Of a stretch of 7,531 nt of DNA, positions 1 through 7,531 are shown one piece after another (the stretch's first letter is position 1; the number at the start of each line of letters is the position of its first letter). The notes under the pieces were generated by a model. It did not search any database. It was not told the origin of the DNA and saw nothing but the letters and a program-made list of their open reading frames with translations. A program made the position numbers and the translations under genes. Origin of the DNA: a virus (taxonomy: Duplodnaviria > Heunggongvirae > Uroviricota > Caudoviricetes); the IMG/VR virus record IMGVR_UViG_2529292715_000018; one strand, written 5' to 3'.

Positions 1-303
1 TTAACGCGTATTTTTCAGCGACTCCTGTGCAAAATACGCTGTTGCTTTTTTTAATATATCTCGCTCAAGGCGAGCTTCATTTAACGCCTTACGCAGCTGC
101 AGAATTTCAGATTCCAGTTCAGCCAGCGTGCGGGAACCAGGAGTACCGAGCCCTTTTCTGGCGGCGGTAACCCATTGTCCTAAAGTGCCTTCAGGAAGAG
201 ATAATCGGGAAGCGCCTTCACTGATCGAAAGTTGATTTTCAAGAACCGTTCTGACAGCTTCGGCTTTGAACTCTTTAGAGTAACGTTGGGTTTTTCTGCT
301 CAT
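1..303 (-). CDS. IS3-family transposase OrfA (IS600-like), 100 aa, HTH plus leucine-zipper
   Basis: ORF MSRKTQRYSKEFKAEAVRTVLENQLSISEGASRLS...LQLRKALNEARLERDILKKATAYF, typical IS3-family OrfA architecture. Strong SD (AGAAGGAG) 7 nt upstream of ATG on minus strand. Stop codon at 1-3. Confidence 0.85.
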   Translation of the reverse strand: MSRKTQRYSKEFKAEAVRTVLENQLSISEGASRLSLPEGTLGQWVTAARKGLGTPGSRTLAELESEILQLRKALNEARLERDILKKATAYFAQESLKNTR

Positions 304-367
304 TATTAGCTCCTTCTGATGCCATTCTATTTCAGGAAGGAGCGTCCGTTAAACTCAGGCTACCTCA
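1..367 (-). mobile_element. IS3-family insertion sequence, IS600-like, partial (one terminus at ~367; element continues beyond window start)
   Basis: Complete OrfA on minus strand (1-303). The reverse complement of 345-367 reads TGAGGTAGCCTGAGTTTAACGG, a TG-initiated IS3-family terminus. OrfB would lie left of the window. IS600 assignment is from memory of the OrfA sequence, not a search. Confidence 0.7.
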
Positions 368-714
368 CTTATTCTAAGCAACCGGGTAGCATCATACGGG
401 GCAATTATGGCCGCATTACCATACATGCAACTGTACATAGCTGATTATCTGGCTGACACCATGCATTTGTCAGCAGAGGAGCACGGCGCGTATTTGTTGC
501 TGATGTTCAATTACTGGCAAACAGGAAAGCCAATACCCAAAAACAGGTTGGCAAAAATTGCCCGTCTGACTAACGAGCGATGGGTTGATGTTGAACCATC
601 CTTGCGGGAGTTTTTTTGTGATAACGGCGACGAATGGATGCATCTTCGGATTGAGGAAGATCTGGCATCTGTCAGAGAAAAATTAACCAAAAAATCAGCC
701 GCAGGAAAAGCATC

Positions 715-813
715 TGTTCAGGCCAGAAGAAGCAGAAAGGAAGCAGATGTTCAAACAAAACAAGAGAGAAATTTAACAGGTGTTCAAACAGATGTTGGAG
801 TGGTGTTCGAACA
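715..813. repeat. Iteron-like repeats (TGTTCA core; TGTTCAAACA x2, palindromic TGTTCGAACA x1), putative phage origin
   Basis: TGTTCA at 715, 749, 781 and TGTTCG at 804, spaced 34/32/23 bp, inside the initiator coding sequence immediately upstream of the IS2 insertion point. Confidence 0.4.
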
Positions 814-814
814 T

Positions 815-819
815 GATGC
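815..819. repeat. IS2 target-site duplication, left copy (GATGC)
   Basis: GATGC directly abuts the IS2 terminus at 820 and recurs at 2073-2077 directly after the other terminus. IS2 is known to make 5-bp duplications. Confidence 0.8.
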
Positions 820-830
820 TGGATTTGCCC

Positions 831-1655
831 CTATATTTCCAGACATCTGTTATCACTTAACCCATTACAAGCCCGCTGCCGCAGATATTCCCGTGGCGAG
901 CGATAACCCAGCGCACTATGCGGATGCCATTCGTTATAATGCTCGAACGCCTCTGCAAGGTTCTTTGCTGCCGTTAACCCGTCTGGTTTGGGCATGATAC
1001 TGATGTAGTCACGCTTTATCGTTTTCACGAAGCTCTCTGCTATTCCGTTACTCTCCGGACTCCGCACCGCCGTGTTCTTCGGTTCAAGTCCCAACATCCG
1101 GGCGAACTGGCGTGTTTCATTAGCCCGGTAGCATGAACCATTATCCGTCAGCCACTCCACTGGAGACGACGGAAGATCGTTGCCGAAGCGGCGTTCCACC
1201 GCTCCCAGCATGACGTCCTGTACTGTTTCACTGTTGAAGCCGCCGGTAGTCACCGCCCAGTGCAGTGCCTCACGATCACAGCAGTCCAGCGCGAACGTGA
1301 CACGCAGTCTCTCTCCGTTATCACAGCAGAACTCGAACCCGTCAGAGCACCATCGCTGATTGCTTTCTTTCACGGCCACTCTGCCTGTATGTGCCCGTTT
1401 CGATGGCGGTACAGCAGGTTTTCGCTCAAGCAACAGCGCATTCTGGCGCATGATCCGGTAAACACGTTTGGCATTGATCGCAGGCATACCATCAAGTTCT
1501 GCCTGTCTGCGAAGCAGCGCCCATACCCGACGATAACCATACGTGGGCAGCTCTCCGATAACATGGTGTATACGGAGAAGCACATCCGTATCATCAGTGT
1601 GACGACTGCGGCGGCCATCCATCCAGTCATCGGTTCGTCTGAGAATGACGTGCAA
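831..1655 (-). CDS. insD: IS2 transposase InsD (OrfB) catalytic region, N-terminally truncated (begins at [11 protein letters not shown]; no ATG)
   Basis: Translation [18 protein letters not shown]...[34 protein letters not shown] matches InsD from about residue 27 onward. The reported M is a TTG codon. An in-frame TGA lies 10 codons upstream. Confidence 0.85.
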
Positions 1656-1981
1656 CTGCGCACGCGACCCCCGGATTCAACGGCTTCTTTGAGGAGTTCA
1701 TTTTCCATCGTTTTCTTGCCGAGCAGGCGCTGGAGTTCTTTAATCTGCTTCATGGCGGCAGCAAGTTCAGAGGCAGGAACAACCTGTTCTCCGGCGGCCA
1801 CAGCAGTAAGACTTCCTTCCTGGTATTGCTTACGCCAGAGAAATAACTGGCTGGCTGCTACACCATGTTGCCGGGCAACGAGGGAGACCGTCATCCCCGG
1901 TTCAAAGCTCTGCTGAACAATTGCGATCTTTTCCTGTGTGGTACGCCGTCTGCGTTTCTCCGGCCCTAAGACATCAATCAT
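1370..1981 (-). CDS. insC: IS2 InsC (OrfA) with aberrant C-terminal extension; native C-terminus and frameshift window deleted
   Basis: [40 protein letters not shown]...[14 protein letters not shown] matches InsC. After EAVE the frame runs on out of frame through the InsD region to a stop at 1370, instead of ending after about 121 aa. Confidence 0.8.
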
Positions 1982-2072
1982 CTGTTCTCCAATGACTAGT
2001 CTAAAAACTAGTATTAAGGCTATCACTTAAATAAGTGATACTGGTTGTCTGGAGATTCAGGGGGCCAGTCTA

Positions 2073-2077
2073 GATGC
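2073..2077. repeat. IS2 target-site duplication, right copy (GATGC)
   Basis: Identical pentamer flanking the opposite IS2 terminus. Confidence 0.8.
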
Positions 2078-2813
2078 CAACACAAAGGCAACTAATAAAG
2101 ATACAGATAAAGATCTAAAAACAGATCTAACCCATCCCAAACCCTTCCCTTCCGGAAGGGAGTTTCGGGATTTTGTGGCTGGAGTGCTTGAGGGGAGATT
2201 ATCTGGCGGTACTGCAGCGGAATTTTGTAATTCTGCGGTGGTTGCGTTGCAGGCTGCTGGCCTGGATGTCTGTCGTGAGTATCCGGTGCCAGAGCGTGGT
2301 GACGGTTGCGGAGGGCGGATTGATATCGTCGTGACTGACAGGAACGGTGTCCGGTGTGGGATCGAGCTTGACCGAAATTCTCCGCGACAGAAATCACTGC
2401 TCAAAATCGGTGCTGTTGAAACCGGGATATGTGTCTTGCGGCGCAGTGATATCGCAAGGCACACCGAGCAGGGAATTCTGGTTATCGGTGGGGCTGTTCG
2501 CCAGAAAAAATTTGACCCGTTGTCAGTTGATCTGCCCGACTGGTTGCCAGATACACTCTGGCATGAGTGGGTCCAGTTCAGGCAGGCATTGCGAAAACCG
2601 ATTCGAACGGAGCTGGGCGCTAACGGGGCGATACGGGAACTGGAAAAATTCCGTCAGCAGGGTTTTACACCTGAGCAGGTGATTCGACACAGCATCGCCA
2701 ATGAATACCAGGGTCTGTTCGCGCCGAAAGGTGTTCGGCCTGAGACGTTGCTCCGACAGGTTAACACCGTCTCGTTGCCGGACAGTGCGATCCCGCCAGG
2801 CTTCAGGGGGTAA
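2078..2813 (+). pseudogene. Phage replication initiator, C-terminal fragment (continues 407-819 in frame once IS2 and one GATGC copy are removed)
   Basis: Frame is open from 2079 with no stop. Removing 820-2077 joins it in frame to 407-819, giving a 382-aa ORF. Stop TAA at 2811-2813 lies 6 nt before the DnaC-like start. Confidence 0.7.
2079..2135. other. A-rich tract with short repeats (AAAGAT / ACAGAT), candidate DNA-unwinding element of the putative origin
   Basis: Sequence aacacaaaggcaactaataaagatacagataaagatctaaaaacagatctaac lies directly downstream of the iteron-like repeats in the pre-insertion arrangement. Confidence 0.3.
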
Positions 2814-2819
2814 CAGACC

Positions 2820-3566
2820 ATGAAAAATATTGCGACAGGAGGCGTTCTGGAGCGTATCCGCAGACTGACCCCACCACATGTAACCGCCCCATTCAGAACG
2901 GTTGCGGAGTGGCGCGAGTGGCAACTTGCTGAAGGCCAGAAACGTTGCGAGGAGATCAACCGCCTGAATCGTCAGTTGCGGGTGGAAAAAATTCTGAACC
3001 GCTCCGGCATCCAGCCGTTGCACCGGAAGTGTTCGTTTGCGAATTACCGGGCGCAGAACGACGGTCAGCGACATGCACTGAGTCAGGCGAAATCCATAGC
3101 TGACGAACTGATGACAGGCTGTACGAATTTTGTGTTCAGCGGTAAGCCCGGCACCGGAAAAAATCATCTTGCAGCCGCGATTGGCAACCGGCTGATGGCG
3201 AAGGGGCGTAGCGTGATTATCGTCACCGTGTCCGATGTCATGAGCGTGTTGCATGAGAGCTACGACAACGGCAAATCCGGTGAAAAATTTTTACAGGAGC
3301 TTTGTGGTGTTGACCTGCTGGTCCTGGATGAAATTGGCATGCAGCGGGATACGAAAAACGAGCAGGTGGTACTGAACCAGATTGTTGATCGCCGGACGGC
3401 ATCGTTACGCGGTGTGGGGATGCTGACAAATATTAACCATGCAGCGATGAATACACTTCTCGGCGAGCGGGTGATGGATCGCATGGTCATGAACGGCGGG
3501 CGCTGGGTGAATTTTAACTGGGAGAGCTGGCGTCCGAATGTTAGCCATTCGAGGGTTGTTAAGTAG
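2820..3566 (+). CDS. DnaC-like helicase loader / phage replication protein (AAA+ ATPase, IstB/DnaC family)
   Basis: Walker A FSGKPGTGKNHLAAAIG and Walker B DLLVLDEIG. SD AGGGGG upstream. Sits immediately downstream of the initiator gene, the usual phage O/P-like pairing. Confidence 0.9.
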   Translation: MKNIATGGVLERIRRLTPPHVTAPFRTVAEWREWQLAEGQKRCEEINRLNRQLRVEKILNRSGIQPLHRKCSFANYRAQNDGQRHALSQAKSIADELMTGCTNFVFSGKPGTGKNHLAAAIGNRLMAKGRSVIIVTVSDVMSVLHESYDNGKSGEKFLQELCGVDLLVLDEIGMQRDTKNEQVVLNQIVDRRTASLRGVGMLTNINHAAMNTLLGERVMDRMVMNGGRWVNFNWESWRPNVSHSRVVK

Positions 3567-3580
3567 TTTCAGGAGGATTT

Positions 3581-4003
3581 ATGGCGAAACCTTTTACTCC
3601 CGAACAGCGGGAAGAACTGAAGACGCGAATTGTGGAACTCGTGCATCAGGACGGTCGGGTCACGATTCGGCAGTTGTCAGATGAAACAGGTATCAGTCGT
3701 GCGTCTGTCGGTCGCTTATGCATGGAACTGGTCGCAAGTGGTGATGTATATAATTCTGGCTACGGGGTATTTCCCTCTGAACAGGCTCATAAAGACTGGC
3801 AAAACGCCCGCAAAAAGCTATCGAGGGTAAAGGTGAAGAAACCGGTTGTGGTTGATCCTGACCTTATCTGGTCATTACCAGACGGAGAAATACGCCGCTA
3901 CGACAGGCGCCTGAATATAATCTGTCGCGAGTGCCGGAAGAGCGAAGCTATGCAGCGCGTGCTGGCGTTTTATCAGGGGAAATTTCAGGAGGCGGTACTG
4001 TGA
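3581..4003 (+). CDS. Ren-like protein (winged-HTH N-terminus; C-terminus resembles lambda Ren)
   Basis: Strong SD (CAGGAGG) 6 nt upstream. C-terminal ICRECRKSEAMQRVLAFYQGK resembles lambda Ren VFKECRQSAAMKRVLAVYGVK as recalled. Position directly after the P-like gene matches lambda ren. Confidence 0.75.
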   Translation: MAKPFTPEQREELKTRIVELVHQDGRVTIRQLSDETGISRASVGRLCMELVASGDVYNSGYGVFPSEQAHKDWQNARKKLSRVKVKKPVVVDPDLIWSLPDGEIRRYDRRLNIICRECRKSEAMQRVLAFYQGKFQEAVL

Positions 4004-4060
4004 GTAAAATTAGCTATCAGGCTTCAATTACCGCTGGTATTCGCATCAAAGGAGAGGAGC

Positions 4061-4417
4061 ATGGAAATAAAACCAGAAGATGAGTTAAGCAATATCGTTT
4101 TATTTCCGGTAAAAGAGGATGACCCACGTAATCAGGTTAATTTTCTTTATGAACCATCGGAAAGACCATATTGCCATCACGCCTCTGTCCGGGTTGACGA
4201 AAAAGAGCGTCAGGTCCGCTGTAAAATCTGCGGTGCGGTTGTGGAGCCGTTTGACTGGATGCTCTCTGTGGCAAAAAGAGAAACCAGACTGGCAGATGAT
4301 GTAAGGCTATTGCGCCAGGAGGAACAGGAAAGGCGGAGAAATATAGAAAAGCTGATACAGATTGAGCGTAACGCGAAAGCGCGGATACGCAGGGCGACAA
4401 AATCCAGAACTGAATAA
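4061..4417 (+). CDS. Hypothetical phage protein, putative zinc-ribbon (CHH...CxxC) with basic coiled-coil C-terminus
   Basis: SD AAAGGAGAGGAG upstream of ATG. Motif YCHHASVRVDEKERQVRCKICGAV. C-terminal region rich in R/E/Q. No family recognised. Confidence 0.7.
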   Translation: MEIKPEDELSNIVLFPVKEDDPRNQVNFLYEPSERPYCHHASVRVDEKERQVRCKICGAVVEPFDWMLSVAKRETRLADDVRLLRQEEQERRRNIEKLIQIERNAKARIRRATKSRTE

Positions 4418-4509
4418 TTAAATTTAGCACTGTTAAAAATTTAATCCTTAACCGGAGGGATTTCTGCACCCTCAAATCATCAGGAGACCGCCCGAAAGGG
4501 CGGTAATGA

Positions 4510-4728
4510 ATGGTTACATTATTTAGAAAAAAATATCCGCGAAAGAGTAGAACAACAGAATTCCTGTTTCTCATTCTGTTTATCGTGTTGATGACACCGA
4601 TATCCCCGCTAATTTTTGTCTGGATAATCGGAAAAATAATTGAGCCAGTTATTGAATTGTATAACGACGTGGTATGGGCGTCATTCAACACACTGCACAA
4701 TAAAATTAATCCGTATAAGGAAAGCTGA
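4510..4728 (+). CDS. Putative small membrane protein (72 aa, one predicted TM helix) in an AT-rich islet
   Basis: Basic N-terminus (RKKYPRKSR) followed by hydrophobic FLFLILFIVLMTPISPLIFVWIIGKII. Local GC clearly lower than flanks. Putative SD AAGGG sits inside a hairpin. Could be a non-coding spacer instead. Confidence 0.4.
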   Translation: MVTLFRKKYPRKSRTTEFLFLILFIVLMTPISPLIFVWIIGKIIEPVIELYNDVVWASFNTLHNKINPYKES

Positions 4729-4729
4729 T

Positions 4730-5164
4730 ATGGCACTGACGAAAAAACAACGTGCAGAACTGCGCATGAAGTTCGGTGGTCGCTGCGCTTATTGCGGCTG
4801 CGAACTTGGCGAAAAGTGGCATGCAGACCATGTAAAACCGGTCATTCGTTTTGATGGAAATATGCTTCACCAGGAACGTGACGATATATCCAACATGGTA
4901 CCAGAATGCCACCCATGCAATCTGCACAAGCATTGCAGTAGCCTAGAAGATTATCGACGAATTATCAGTGATGGTCGTCGTGAATTCCTTGCGTCCGGGA
5001 AAGGCAAAGCGCTGGTTCGTATGGGATTGGTTGAAATGAAATCTGACCCGGTTGTGTTCTGGTTTGAAAAATATCAAGAAGGGGCTACGGCATGGCCACT
5101 ATTACCAAAGAGCGACTGCAATGGCTGGCTAACATTTCTGGCCGCGATGATATTGACGATATAG
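4730..5164 (+). CDS. HNH endonuclease
   Basis: Motifs CAYCGCEL, HADHVKPV and PECHPCNLHK fit the HNH pattern. SD AAGGAAA upstream of ATG at 4730; the ORF track start at 4640 is probably an over-extension. The 3' end overlaps the next gene by 73 nt in another frame. Confidence 0.85.
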   Translation: MALTKKQRAELRMKFGGRCAYCGCELGEKWHADHVKPVIRFDGNMLHQERDDISNMVPECHPCNLHKHCSSLEDYRRIISDGRREFLASGKGKALVRMGLVEMKSDPVVFWFEKYQEGATAWPLLPKSDCNGWLTFLAAMILTI

Positions 5165-5757
5165 ACGGCGGTGAAATTCGTGAACTGGCGCTTATCGCTC
5201 TGGCATCACTGGAAGCAGAGCCTGTAGCGGAATGCATTGTTGAAGATGGGGGCATGTGTATTGACGGGTTCGGTGAGTATGTGGGTCACTCGCTGCCTGA
5301 TGGAATGCATGAGCTTTATGCTGCCCCGCGAATGCGACAACCTGATGGATGGAAAGCCGTAGCTGTAGCGTGGAAGGTGACGTTTACTCAAGTTGACCAG
5401 GAATCTAATACGTTCACTGCTATATATTTTGACAAAGCGGAAGTTGAGCGTTGGGTACGACTGCATAAAGCATGTGATTTTCGGGCAGATATAACACCGC
5501 TTTACGCAGCGCCGGCAGTGCCGGTTGCAGTAAACGACGACATGGCTTACGCATTCCATCACGCACTGTCAGATTCATCGCTTGGCTCTGGTGAAATCGA
5601 AGAAATTAAAACCGGTTTGCGTGCTGCCTTTGCCAACGTCACTATCCAACCAGAGCCGATAGTGCCGGATGAAATCGGGCCAAACGATAGTAATACGTTT
5701 GATTATGTTGATGGCTGGAACGCCTGCCGCGCTGCCATGCTTAAGGGAGATAAATAA
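5092..5757 (+). CDS. Hypothetical phage accessory protein (221 aa), acidic N-terminus, internal LYAAP repeat
   Basis: SD AAGAAGGGG 7 nt upstream of ATG. Stop overlaps the start of the next gene (TAATG). No confident family assignment. Confidence 0.7.
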   Translation: MATITKERLQWLANISGRDDIDDIDGGEIRELALIALASLEAEPVAECIVEDGGMCIDGFGEYVGHSLPDGMHELYAAPRMRQPDGWKAVAVAWKVTFTQVDQESNTFTAIYFDKAEVERWVRLHKACDFRADITPLYAAPAVPVAVNDDMAYAFHHALSDSSLGSGEIEEIKTGLRAAFANVTIQPEPIVPDEIGPNDSNTFDYVDGWNACRAAMLKGDK

Positions 5758-6122
5758 TGATTAATCGAACCAAACTGGAGCACATTCTCGAATATGCCAG
5801 GCAGCAGAAATGTATTGGGCAACTTTGTAAAATTCCACCAGGAGATATGGTTGAAATCGTGGAAATGGCCATGCGTAAGGCTGGCAACTCTCCGGTAACT
5901 CTGGCTGGCTGGATAAGCTGTAGTGATGCAGTTCCTGCTGAATATTGCGATGTGATTCTTCTCGATGATCTCGGGAATGTATTCCCCGGTTCCTGGGATA
6001 AGGTTTTTTGCCCCACTCGTGGCGGGAATAAGATGGCTTTTGTGGACAAAGACGGCGTTGAAGTAGAGAGCTCAACTCACTGGATGCCGCTACCGGAACC
6101 ACCGCAGGAGGTGAATCAATGA
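5757..6122 (+). CDS. DUF551-domain phage protein
   Basis: C-terminal THWMPLPEPP and GWISCSDAVPAEYCDVILL match the DUF551 pattern as recalled. Translationally coupled to the upstream gene. Confidence 0.8.
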   Translation: MINRTKLEHILEYARQQKCIGQLCKIPPGDMVEIVEMAMRKAGNSPVTLAGWISCSDAVPAEYCDVILLDDLGNVFPGSWDKVFCPTRGGNKMAFVDKDGVEVESSTHWMPLPEPPQEVNQ

Positions 6123-6202
6123 CCTGGCCTGAGGCATTCACCACGGTAGGAATTGCGATGGCGGTGGCGCTGGTGGTGTATTCGATTTGCCGTTGGGGTT
6201 AA
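6119..6202 (+). CDS. Small hydrophobic peptide (27 aa, MTWPEAFTTVGIAMAVALVVYSICRWG), putative single-TM membrane peptide
   Basis: ATG overlaps the upstream stop (ATGA). Strong SD AGGAGG 8 nt upstream. Followed within 10 nt by an intrinsic terminator. Below the ORF-track length cutoff. Confidence 0.4.
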   Translation: MTWPEAFTTVGIAMAVALVVYSICRWG

Positions 6203-6209
6203 CAAACAA

Positions 6210-6240
6210 AAACCCCGGATTGATGGTCCGGGGTTTTTGA
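6210..6240 (+). terminator. Rho-independent terminator
   Basis: Hairpin AACCCCGGA...TCCGGGGTT followed by TTTTT. Confidence 0.75.
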
Positions 6241-6408
6241 AGGAAACAAAACAGAAACAGCAATTGCCGTTACCTGTTGTTACCATGGCAAGTAAACGTA
6301 TCTCAGGCGAGCGCATTGCGCCGTTCTGACGCAGATAAATTAGCCTGGATAGAAGGTGCTGGCAATAAAAAATAGCGTTTTCTTATCGGTATCGGTAAGA
6401 TTGCTGCG

Positions 6409-6420
6409 GGTGCTTGAGGC
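6409..6420 (+). promoter_or_regulatory. Putative 5' end of hok mRNA (tac-like element GGTGCTTGAGGC)
   Basis: Resembles the 5' end of plasmid R1 hok mRNA (GGCGCUUGAGGC) as recalled. Complementary to a 3' element at 6782-6793. A possible -10 (TAAGAT) lies at 6396-6401. Confidence 0.5.
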
Positions 6421-6454
6421 TGTCTGCCTCGGGCATGCCACTGTAAGGCAGACA

Positions 6455-6550
6455 GAGAAAAGCCCCAGTTAACATTACGCGTCCTGCAAGACGCTTAACA
6501 TTAATCTGAGGCCCAATCTATGTCTCACAAATGTAGGTTAGCCTCTTACG
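6455..6550 (-). ncRNA. Sok-like antisense RNA, putative; boundaries approximate
   Basis: By analogy with hok/sok loci the antisense RNA is encoded opposite the mok start and leader. An inverted repeat GCGTC...GACGC (6479-6494) and a T-rich stretch on the minus strand could form its 3' end. Promoter not confidently identified. Confidence 0.35.
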
Positions 6551-6732
6551 TGCCGAAAGGCAAGGAGAAGCAGGCTATGAAGCAGCAAAAGGCGATGTTA
6601 ATCGCCCTGATCGTCATCTGTTTAACCGTCATAGTGACGGCACTGGTAACGAGGAAAGACCTCTGCGAGGTACGAATCCGAACCGGCCAGACGGAGGTCG
6701 CTGTCTTCACAGCTTACGAACCTGAGGAGTAA
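6520..6732 (+). CDS. Mok-like reading frame (70 aa) containing hok in frame
   Basis: ATG at 6520 opens a frame running into and through hok, the arrangement recalled for chromosomal mokC/hokC. Confidence 0.55.
   Translation: MSHKCRLASYVPKGKEKQAMKQQKAMLIALIVICLTVIVTALVTRKDLCEVRIRTGQTEVAVFTAYEPEE
6577..6732 (+). CDS. hokD: Hok/Gef-family type I toxin (51 aa), HokD/RelF-like
   Basis: MKQQKAMLIALIVICLTVIVTALVTRKDLCEVRIRTGQTEVAVFTAYEPEE: single TM helix plus conserved RKxLCE...GQTEVA motif. Matches HokD (RelF) as recalled from memory. SD AAGGAG upstream. Confidence 0.85.
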   Translation: MKQQKAMLIALIVICLTVIVTALVTRKDLCEVRIRTGQTEVAVFTAYEPEE

Positions 6733-6781
6733 GAGACCAGGCGGGGGAGAAATCCCTCGCCACCTCTCATGTGTCAGGCAT

Positions 6782-6793
6782 CCTCAACGCACC
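6782..6793 (+). promoter_or_regulatory. fbi-like 3' element of hok mRNA (CCTCAACGCACC)
   Basis: Reverse complement GGTGCGTTGAGG pairs with 6409-6419 with a single-nucleotide bulge. Confidence 0.5.
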
Positions 6794-6799
6794 CGCACT

Positions 6800-6823
6800 A
6801 AACCCGCTTCGGCGGGTTTTTTG
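6800..6823 (+). terminator. Rho-independent terminator of hok transcript
   Basis: Hairpin AACCCGC-TTCG-GCGGGTT followed by TTTTTT. Confidence 0.75.
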
Positions 6824-7007
6824 TTGCGTGCTGAATACGCAGGGTGAAAAATAACCATATATTTGATTATATACACAACAAAAAATAAAAGTCATTGTAC
6901 TTGCACATTAAACAATCAAATATACGGCGTGAAATAAATATTTTTCAGATTAATATTTTTGTCTCTATGTGGATATAACCGTTTGTACTTATAAACCTGG
7001 AGGCATC

Positions 7008-7220
7008 GTGGAGAAAATAAAGAAACTATTTAGTAGCAAATACGCAGTCATACGTCGTGATGACCTGTCAGTTATAGTCGAAATGGATTACTTCCCTGAA
7101 ACCCCAAAATCAATAATGTATCGTAATGGTCGAAAGGCAATTTTTTTACCGATGAGGGTAAGTGACATTATGGGAAATGATAAACTGCTGGATGAATTGC
7201 GAGTCAGAGCATCCTGTTAG
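7008..7220 (+). CDS. Hypothetical small protein (70 aa from GTG 7008; 83 aa if GTG 6969 is used)
   Basis: SD GGAGG 4 nt before GTG at 7008. Preceded by an AT-rich promoter-like region (6840-6990). Stop at 7218-7220, 2 nt before the IS1 terminus. Function unknown. Confidence 0.45.
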   Translation: MEKIKKLFSSKYAVIRRDDLSVIVEMDYFPETPKSIMYRNGRKAIFLPMRVSDIMGNDKLLDELRVRASC

Positions 7221-7222
7221 TA

Positions 7223-7531
7223 GGTAATGACTCCAACTTACTGATAGTGTTTTATGTTCAGATAATGCCCGATGACCTTGTCATGCAGCTCCACCGATTT
7301 TGAGAACGACAGTGACTTCCGTCCCAGCCTTGCCAGATGTTGTCTCAGATTCAGATTATGTCGCTCAATGCGCTGAGTGTAACGCTTGCTGATAACGTGC
7401 AGCTTTCCCTTCAGGCGTGATTCATACAGCGGCCAGCCATCCGTCATCCATACCATGACCTCAAAGGCCGACAGCAGGCTCAGAAGACGCTCCAGTGTGG
7501 CCAGAGTGCGTTCACCGAAGACGTGCGCCAC
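7223..7531 (-). mobile_element. IS1 element, partial (terminus at 7223; continues beyond window end)
   Basis: Terminus GGTAATGACTCCAACTTACTGATAGTGTTTTATGTTCAGATAATGCCCGATGAC matches the IS1 inverted repeat as recalled. InsB C-terminus is encoded on the minus strand. Confidence 0.9.
7238..7531 (-). CDS. insB: IS1 transposase InsB, C-terminal part (partial at window edge)
   Basis: [94 protein letters not shown] matches InsB with a few substitutions relative to the K-12 isoform as recalled. Confidence 0.9.

Follow-up and report, generated by a model that had tools for sequence, protein, structure and literature searches.

Within a 7,531-nucleotide (nt) stretch of Caudoviricetes DNA (IMG/VR record IMGVR_UViG_2529292715_000018; the whole stretch is called the window below), we identified what is probably the replication origin of a Rac-type lambdoid prophage, a reading to which we assign a probability of about 0.72. 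The candidate consists of a repeat array at 716-819 and an A-rich tract at 2078-2135, now held apart by a copy of IS2, and would lie within the linker-coding part of the prophage's own initiator gene, a homologue of ydaU. The Rac prophage has been reported to have an active origin, oriJ (PMC3945230), of which the repeat and tract together are probably the sequence basis. A sequence-only reading of the window had proposed an origin embedded in the initiator gene, and each computational prediction of that proposal held, which supports it. The case is carried by the anatomy of the element, selection on its DNA, an 11-nt periodicity, the co-inheritance of domain, repeats and tract, and the homologies of the encoded domains. 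The element and the gene around it comprise:

407-819, plus strand: 5′ part (codons 1-138) of the YdaU-family initiator gene, from the in-frame reconstruction
419-667, plus strand: DUF1376 domain (amino acids 5-87; Pfam, E 6.6e-25), a predicted winged helix
716-819, plus strand: 11-bp phased repeat array (putative iterons), with units from 716 (weak), 749, 782, 793 (degenerate) and 804
815-819, unstranded: left copy of the IS2 target-site duplication GATGC
820-2072, minus strand: IS2 with a 78-bp internal deletion (IS2A nt 398-475), from global alignment to MG1655 IS2A
2073-2077, unstranded: right copy of GATGC, on the other flank of IS2
2078-2094, plus strand: last, degenerate array units CAACACAAAGGCAACTA and right arm of a 34-bp palindrome, placed by the 11-nt register and by CAAC/AAC positions conserved in homologues
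2090-2135, plus strand: A-rich tract, a putative DNA-unwinding element (ACTAATAAAGAT, then ACAGAT/AAAGAT hexamers), from stability and conservation
2532-2813, plus strand: DnaT-C-terminal-like domain of the initiator, ending in IPPGFRG (PDB 2ru8_A, E 1.6e-4; BLASTP against K-12 DnaT, E 1e-9)

Removing IS2 and one GATGC copy restored an open frame of 1149 nt (382 amino acids) and brought the tract directly 3′ of the repeats, so that IS2 indeed sits inside the initiator gene between the two, where the sequence-only reading had put it. The insertion starts six bases past the last strong repeat and interrupts the right arm of an imperfect palindrome of 34 bp with TTCGAA at its centre. Its identity is secured by alignment to MG1655 IS2A (8 mismatches and a single 78-bp gap) and by the 5-bp target duplication. 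An intact allele in FDAARGOS_944 is 99.7% identical to the rebuilt gene, and K-12 Rac ydaU matches its nt 1-456 and 841-1149 at ~95% identity. With identity to both ydaU and ydaV of K-12 Rac at ~95%, the element falls in the replication region of a Rac-type prophage. In the rebuilt gene the array occupies nt 310-430 (sites at nt 310-412), between the DUF1376 domain (amino acids 5-87) and the DnaT-like domain (amino acids 290-382).

TGTTC[AG] cores lie at 715, 748, 781 and 804, with a fifth copy at 504. The sequence-only reading had listed the same four array cores and placed three of them correctly; the one it gave at 749 begins at 748. It had also pointed out a perfect palindrome, and the 10-bp TGTTCGAACA is present at 804-813, as an allele-specific form whose K-12 counterpart is TGTTTGAACA. 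The strong sites are 10-mers of the form TGTTCRAACA at 748-757, 781-790 and 804-813, one a perfect palindrome and two near-palindromes. Allowing up to one mismatch, TGTTCRAACA matches the 7.5-kb window at 748, 781 and 804 only, giving 6 strand-hits against 1.05 expected, a count that 1 of 200 shuffles reached. The copy at 715 is weak because its match is limited to the 6-nt core. K-12 Rac carries the same three strong sites. The repeats that had been read as a row of iterons thus exist, not as four equal copies but as an 11-bp phased unit with three strong members, one weak one and several degenerate ones.

The repetition extends beyond these cores. Across the linker we counted 23 direct 9-mer pairs (up to one mismatch), compared with 2.4 +/- 2.3 and a maximum of 17 in 2000 synonymous-codon resamplings, none of which reached 23. 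At lag 11 the self-similarity of the linker among homologues was 0.48, and at lag 22 it was 0.38, over a background of ~0.25, with the domain, as control, flat; in the window alone the peaks were 0.41 (lag 11) and 0.45 (lag 33). The spacing of 11 nt is near one helical turn; as it is not a multiple of the codon, the repeats do not read as a peptide repeat. No other short-range direct-repeat family was found in the window at 2078-7237, a promoter scan returned no promoter-like site in the intact gene, and Rfam had no match in the repeat/tract region (its sole match in the window is a sok, far off).

The tract that directly followed the array before the insertion is A-rich and built of short repeats, as had been noticed from the letters. 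Adenine makes up 53% of positions 2078-2135 (gene nt 414-470) and A+T 69%; in the core at 2090-2130, A+T reaches 78%, with 59% A on the coding strand, in a window of 49% GC. Hexamers of the form [AC][AC]AGAT begin at 2097, 2103, 2109 and 2121, and GATC sites lie inside the tract at 2112 and 2124, 12 bp apart. In the ydaU-ydaV module the tract core has the lowest stability of all 40-mers (free energy, dG, -42.9 versus a mean of -56.1), and no coding sequence in the window has a less stable one. A search of the ydaU-ydaV module for the DnaA box TTATNCACA with up to one mismatch found none, and hence no oriC-type DnaA-box cluster.

We next asked how the DNA behaves across homologues. The DUF1376 domain with the adjoining repeats and tract (the N-module) was gathered from species genomes and viral contigs and reduced to 33 representatives at <93% nt identity, spanning Escherichia, Citrobacter, Enterobacter, Kluyvera, Rahnella, Pantoea, Klebsiella and viral contigs. 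In alignment columns with the same amino acid, observed synonymous differences were set against the expectation from codon usage, with these observed/expected ratios:

DUF1376 domain: 0.77
Next 30 codons after the domain: 0.80
Repeat block: 0.37
A-rich tract: 0.11

Columns below 0.05 made up 17 of 35 in the repeat and A-rich blocks versus 2 of 107 upstream (Mann-Whitney p 5e-9). Comparison with intact homologues had been suggested as the check on the origin proposal, and on this measure the repeat core and tract are conserved far beyond codon constraint (0.37 and 0.11 versus 0.77).

The detail of the conservation points the same way. Across genera, Asn in the tract is always AAT, Lys always AAA, Asp always GAT and Leu nearly always the rare CTA; the encoded residues vary (T/P, K/T/I), as does the number of hexamers, from ~2 to 7. 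Codon choice is invariant even where the amino acid changes, for example CGT/TGT and ACA/CCA. The distance from GTTCAAC to ACTAATAAAGAT is fixed in 32 of the 33 representatives, with an inverted CCGTTKGAACAG after it in about half. In the window GTTCAAC encodes V-Q, whereas a 1-nt offset makes it R-S-T in most clades, and Rahnella has three CGACCGTTCAACG copies read in two frames. Core variants (YAACA or YAACG) track protein clades: Rac-type and Citrobacter braakii alleles carry TGTTCAA(A)CA and most other clades CGTTCAACGG, the array sites themselves being TGTTCAAACA in Rac and CGTTCAACGG in Rahnella and Enterobacter. In a metagenomic relative (L341; 58% identity in the domain), Tandem Repeats Finder returned TCAACGGACGT in 6.5 copies, directly followed by 4.5 copies of ATACAG; there the array and hexamers form the 3′ end of a stand-alone 160-amino-acid DUF1376 gene, with the stop codon just after. 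On these comparisons, selection acts on the repeat/tract DNA itself.

The same block travels among replication systems. N-modules are found with DnaC-like loaders (the window, K-12, L013, L014 and L019) and with lambda-P-like loaders (L005, L018, L020 and L024), and in L341 the next genes encode a helicase and then a primase. Because the loaders vary in this way, no DNA other than the repeat-plus-tract segment stays with the DUF1376 domain throughout. In AR_0085 the N-module (domain, repeats and tract) is joined to a different C-terminal domain and has a lambda-P-type gene after it; conversely, Sakai Sp10 and strain 86-24 keep the C-module and ydaV and have a different N-module. The DNA-binding domain, repeats and tract are passed on as one block and swapped between helicase-loader systems. 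By a match to the gene, 1506 of 5426 complete E. coli genomes (about a quarter) carry the element, as do many Enterobacterales prophages. Among plasmids we found 14 records, mostly megaplasmids that probably carry prophages, and no clear replicon relying on the module alone.

The different N-module of Sakai Sp10 (L003 2330-2470) has GTTAC/GTAAC repeats of its own (the palindrome GGTAACGCTGCCAGCGTTACA and copies of GTTACAAA) and, past them, a purine-rich tract; both occupy the equivalent place within the gene. A scan of viral contigs for relatives of this N-module returned matches all at >=93% identity.

The encoded domains would suit such an element. The N-terminal DUF1376 domain has a predicted winged-helix fold resembling the winged-helix domains of initiators and is presumed to be the origin-binding domain. 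It is the initiator's sole Pfam match, with no match to the lambda O family; PHROG labels read 'primosomal protein', and 'replication initiation O-like' matches the C-terminal part only. The YdaU C-terminus (amino acids 290-382) aligns with DnaT residues 93-179 and has the identical IPPGFRG end, and other C-module types match Pfam DnaT; by homology, its presumed roles are binding of single-stranded DNA and recruitment of the loader. That loader, YdaV, shares 49% identity with K-12 DnaC (E 2e-89).

From these parts we infer initiator binding, DNA melting and origin firing as follows. The DUF1376 winged helix would bind the array of 11-bp units (core GTTCAAAC or the palindrome TGTTCRAACA), whose sites would lie on one face of the DNA because the unit spacing equals one helical turn. 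The resulting nucleoprotein complex would distort the DNA and melt the adjacent A-rich (ACAGAT/AAAGAT)n tract with its GATC sites. The DnaT-like C-terminal domain could then engage the single strand and bring in the DnaC-like loader YdaV with host DnaB.

Several observations weigh against this reading, and some of them invite other explanations. Lambda has four 18-bp iterons, whereas the units here measure just 10-11 bp and no more than three copies in the window are strong. The 33 representatives are related and recombining, and the synonymous statistics are not corrected for phylogeny. Among 29 unique Rac-type alleles, a clade too shallow to reveal extra constraint, polymorphism in the array (15 of 73 sites) is no less than in the domain (32 of 300), and the fourth site varies, C or T, within the same clade. 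Homology between alleles breaks at gene nt 444-456, inside or just past the tract, different C-terminal modules and the optional cassette described below all join there, and within-clade polymorphism is concentrated at nt 451-468. Tract conservation at a module boundary could therefore partly reflect recombination, and the tract and its flanks might be no origin at all but a boundary sequence kept by homologous recombination among mosaic lambdoid phages. A boundary role for the tract is plausible, but in place of an origin we consider it unlikely: it leaves unexplained the 11-nt phased array, the 6.5-copy array of L341 and the position of the tract at the module's thermodynamic minimum. The lambda origin is itself a recombination boundary between the domains of O, so that boundary and origin are compatible.

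The repeats might instead be operators for the initiator's own operon, or transcription pause sites, with the true origin elsewhere, perhaps within ydaV or past it. In favour of operators, autoregulation is common among the winged-helix initiators of iteron plasmids. The only published oriJ coordinates that we found are those of PCR primers said to frame oriJ (PMC3945230), and these map inside ydaV, ~0.7 kb downstream, a further point against an origin within ydaU. Yet ydaV yielded no core motif, repeat family or low-stability segment, and an origin borne on it could not serve phages with P-like loaders or with helicase and primase, because there the N-module occurs without ydaV. Operators, moreover, normally lie at a promoter, not 300 nt into a coding sequence beside an unwinding tract, and we regard this explanation as improbable. 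That the repeats merely encode a repetitive, low-complexity linker (xVQT, TDTD...) or are chance matches is harder still to credit. The copies at 715, 748 and 781 do share a frame (SVQ, DVQ, GVQ), and the linker is rich in K, D and T; the 804 copy, however, lies in another frame, other clades read the core as R-S-T, and the 11-nt period, the invariant codons at varying residues and the 0 of 2000 codon resamplings contradict a peptide origin. A repeated peptide motif was what the sequence-only reading had said would count against its proposal; the non-codon period and the same core in different frames show no such motif. An origin within the initiator gene remains the reading that we favour.

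In the window itself the element is dead. IS2 puts 1.25 kb between sites and tract and cuts the initiator at codon 138, and IS600 also took out the upstream operon. Loss of both initiator and origin to IS2, as first proposed, is what this truncation and separation would predict; that account was incomplete in that IS600 had removed the upstream genes and promoter as well. Rac homology begins at 368 and IS600 stops at ~367, 39 bp 5′ of the initiator ATG (407); in its place all intact relatives have ydaS, ydaT and the repressor/promoter region, which are missing here. A full-length IS2 occupies the identical site, with the same IS600, in Shigella flexneri SFBU1023 and E. coli ECMA0423. The window's own IS2 copy is probably defective because the 78-bp deletion removes the insC/insD overlap. 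The window is thus the decayed replication region of a Rac-type prophage, and for the window alone the result is ordinary: a dead prophage replication module hit by IS600 and IS2. Its remaining features of interest are:

1-367, minus strand: end of an IS600 element (orfA at 1-303), 98% identical to IS600 copies, with an HTH_Tnp_1 domain
572-598, plus strand: possible outlying binding site(s) in the winged-helix coding region, AACGAGCGATGGGTTGATGTTGAACC, from a synonymous dip and resemblance to the repeat unit
2127-2504, plus strand: optional cassette of ~125 amino acids directly past the A-rich tract, absent from K-12 YdaU, with phrog_1347 (unknown function) as its sole match
2820-3566, plus strand: ydaV-like gene for a DnaC-type helicase loader, with IstB_IS21 and Bac_DnaA domains

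The patch at 572-598 is a secondary dip in synonymous variation (0.44 over alignment columns 56-71) and reads AACGACCGTTGG..GCCGTTGAA in most clades; by its resemblance to the unit it may be an outlying binding site of the initiator. The cassette, LTHPKPF...GGAVRQ, stands in for 12 residues of K-12 YdaU and includes a GRIDIVVTD...IELD motif that looks nuclease-like. Besides the window, FDAARGOS_944 and STEC306 carry it; both types of N-module are found with it, and PGAP labels its intact carriers as two pseudogene pieces. In Phytobacter and Kosakonia (L028 and L029), a T5orf172/GIY-YIG-like domain is inserted between DUF1376 and the A-rich tract, and the inserted coding DNA is rich in CTACGGTAG/GTAGCTACG repeats, possibly other binding sites.

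The annotated start of K-12 ydaU (L001 2950-3000) lies 51 nt upstream of the MAALPYMQLY start and is probably over-extended, as MAALPYMQLY opens the frame in all 21 translated species-genome homologues and in the 33 representatives. A search for homologous proteins returned mainly short or truncated ones, many ending within the hexamer tract. Four family proteins (P0020, P0025, P0028 and P0055) end in IQIQIQ or YRYRYR, which is the ACAGAT hexamer tract in other frames; these ends suggest frameshift-prone assemblies or real slippage at the tract.

On the 3′ side of the ydaV-like gene lie a DUF977 gene, small phage genes, a hok/sok locus and IS1. The hok/sok-type toxin-antitoxin locus spans 6408-6732, with the Rfam sok at 6408-6582 (118 bits) and a Hok-like open reading frame ending at 6732.

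An origin inside the initiator gene is the textbook layout of lambdoid phages, and that Rac has an oriJ was known; what is new here is the example and the candidate sequence, not the principle. The element gives a concrete, testable sequence for a long-known and apparently unannotated origin, and an origin-binding role is proposed for YdaU's DUF1376 domain, whose function RefSeq still lists as unknown. Its compactness, an 11-bp phased array plus a hexamer tract, makes it easy to mutate and hence a simple system in which to study DNA opening by a winged-helix initiator on behalf of a DnaC-type loader. The findings also bear on the phage ancestry of DnaT and DnaC. As a tentative extension, which taken as a whole we think rather doubtful, the DUF1376 domain, the 11-bp phased array and the (ACAGAT)n/GATC tract may together make up a portable, self-contained origin cassette for at least three helicase-delivery systems (DnaC-like, lambda-P-like, and own helicase plus primase), in which hexamer copy number might tune firing; ydaU-ydaV may then be the phage counterpart of enterobacterial dnaT-dnaC, and DnaT the loader-recruiting half of a phage initiator minus its origin-binding half.

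Set beside known systems, the element resembles some in part and one closely. Plasmid iterons are usually 17-22 bp long. Similarity of the DUF1376 domain to plasmid winged-helix Rep proteins (pSK41 RepA type, PDB 4pta) is generic to the fold, at 8-16% sequence identity. The repeats may also resemble the type I iterons of phage P4 (TGTTCACC), a likeness that plays no part in the argument. The bottom strand of the tract, GATCTGTTTTTA GATCTTTATCTG TATCTTTATTAG, approximately resembles the 13-mers of oriC (GATCTATTTATTT, GATCTGTTCTATT and GATCTCTTATTAG), a matter of resemblance only, and the tract, like oriC, would be used with a DnaC-type loader; the tract, however, has a period of 12 nt versus ~15-16 in oriC, and its module has no DnaA box.

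The dnaT-dnaC operon (L344) mirrors the gene order of ydaU-ydaV, with 49% identity between YdaV and DnaC and the shared IPPGFRG end. Unlike YdaU, DnaT is without a DUF1376 domain, an embedded repeat array or an A-rich tract, and it acts in replication restart, not at an origin. For Rac oriJ, no feature is annotated in the MG1655 RefSeq record or the phage Rac-SA53 record, and no nucleotide-level definition was found in the literature searched on oriJ, ydaU and DUF1376. The N-module of the window is ~95% identical to nt 1-456 of K-12 Rac ydaU, including the three strong sites and the tract; the window copy differs in being split by IS2 and in carrying the extra 125-amino-acid cassette.

The closest parallel is the lambda origin, where, in the passage of PMC5509034 that cites Tsurimoto and Matsubara 1981, O binds four iterons, an A-rich region lies next to them and P delivers DnaB. 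The components differ. Here the initiator joins a DUF1376 winged helix to a DnaT-like C-terminus, whereas lambda has Phage_rep_O; the sites are 11-bp helix-phased units with 10-bp palindromic cores in place of four 18-bp iterons, and the set of four ~18-19-bp iterons with internal dyad symmetry expected of a lambda-type origin is absent; the putative unwinding tract consists of hexamers whose copy number varies, and it contains GATC sites; and the loader is DnaC-like where lambda's is P. The arrangement is shared. In both, the repeats lie between the DNA-binding and loader-recruiting domains of the initiator gene, an A-rich, easily melted tract follows directly 3′ with its A-rich strand as the coding strand, and the helicase-loader gene is immediately downstream. 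The likeness to the lambda origin in gene O that was first drawn from the letters is borne out by this order and by a near-equal place in the gene: the iterons of lambda occupy nt 349-433 of O and precede the A-rich region, and here the sites are at nt 310-412 and the tract at nt 414-470. The DNA here is conserved beyond coding need (0.37 and 0.11 versus 0.77), as expected of an origin of this type, and, as at the lambda origin, the N-terminal domain and its sites are exchanged as one specificity unit.

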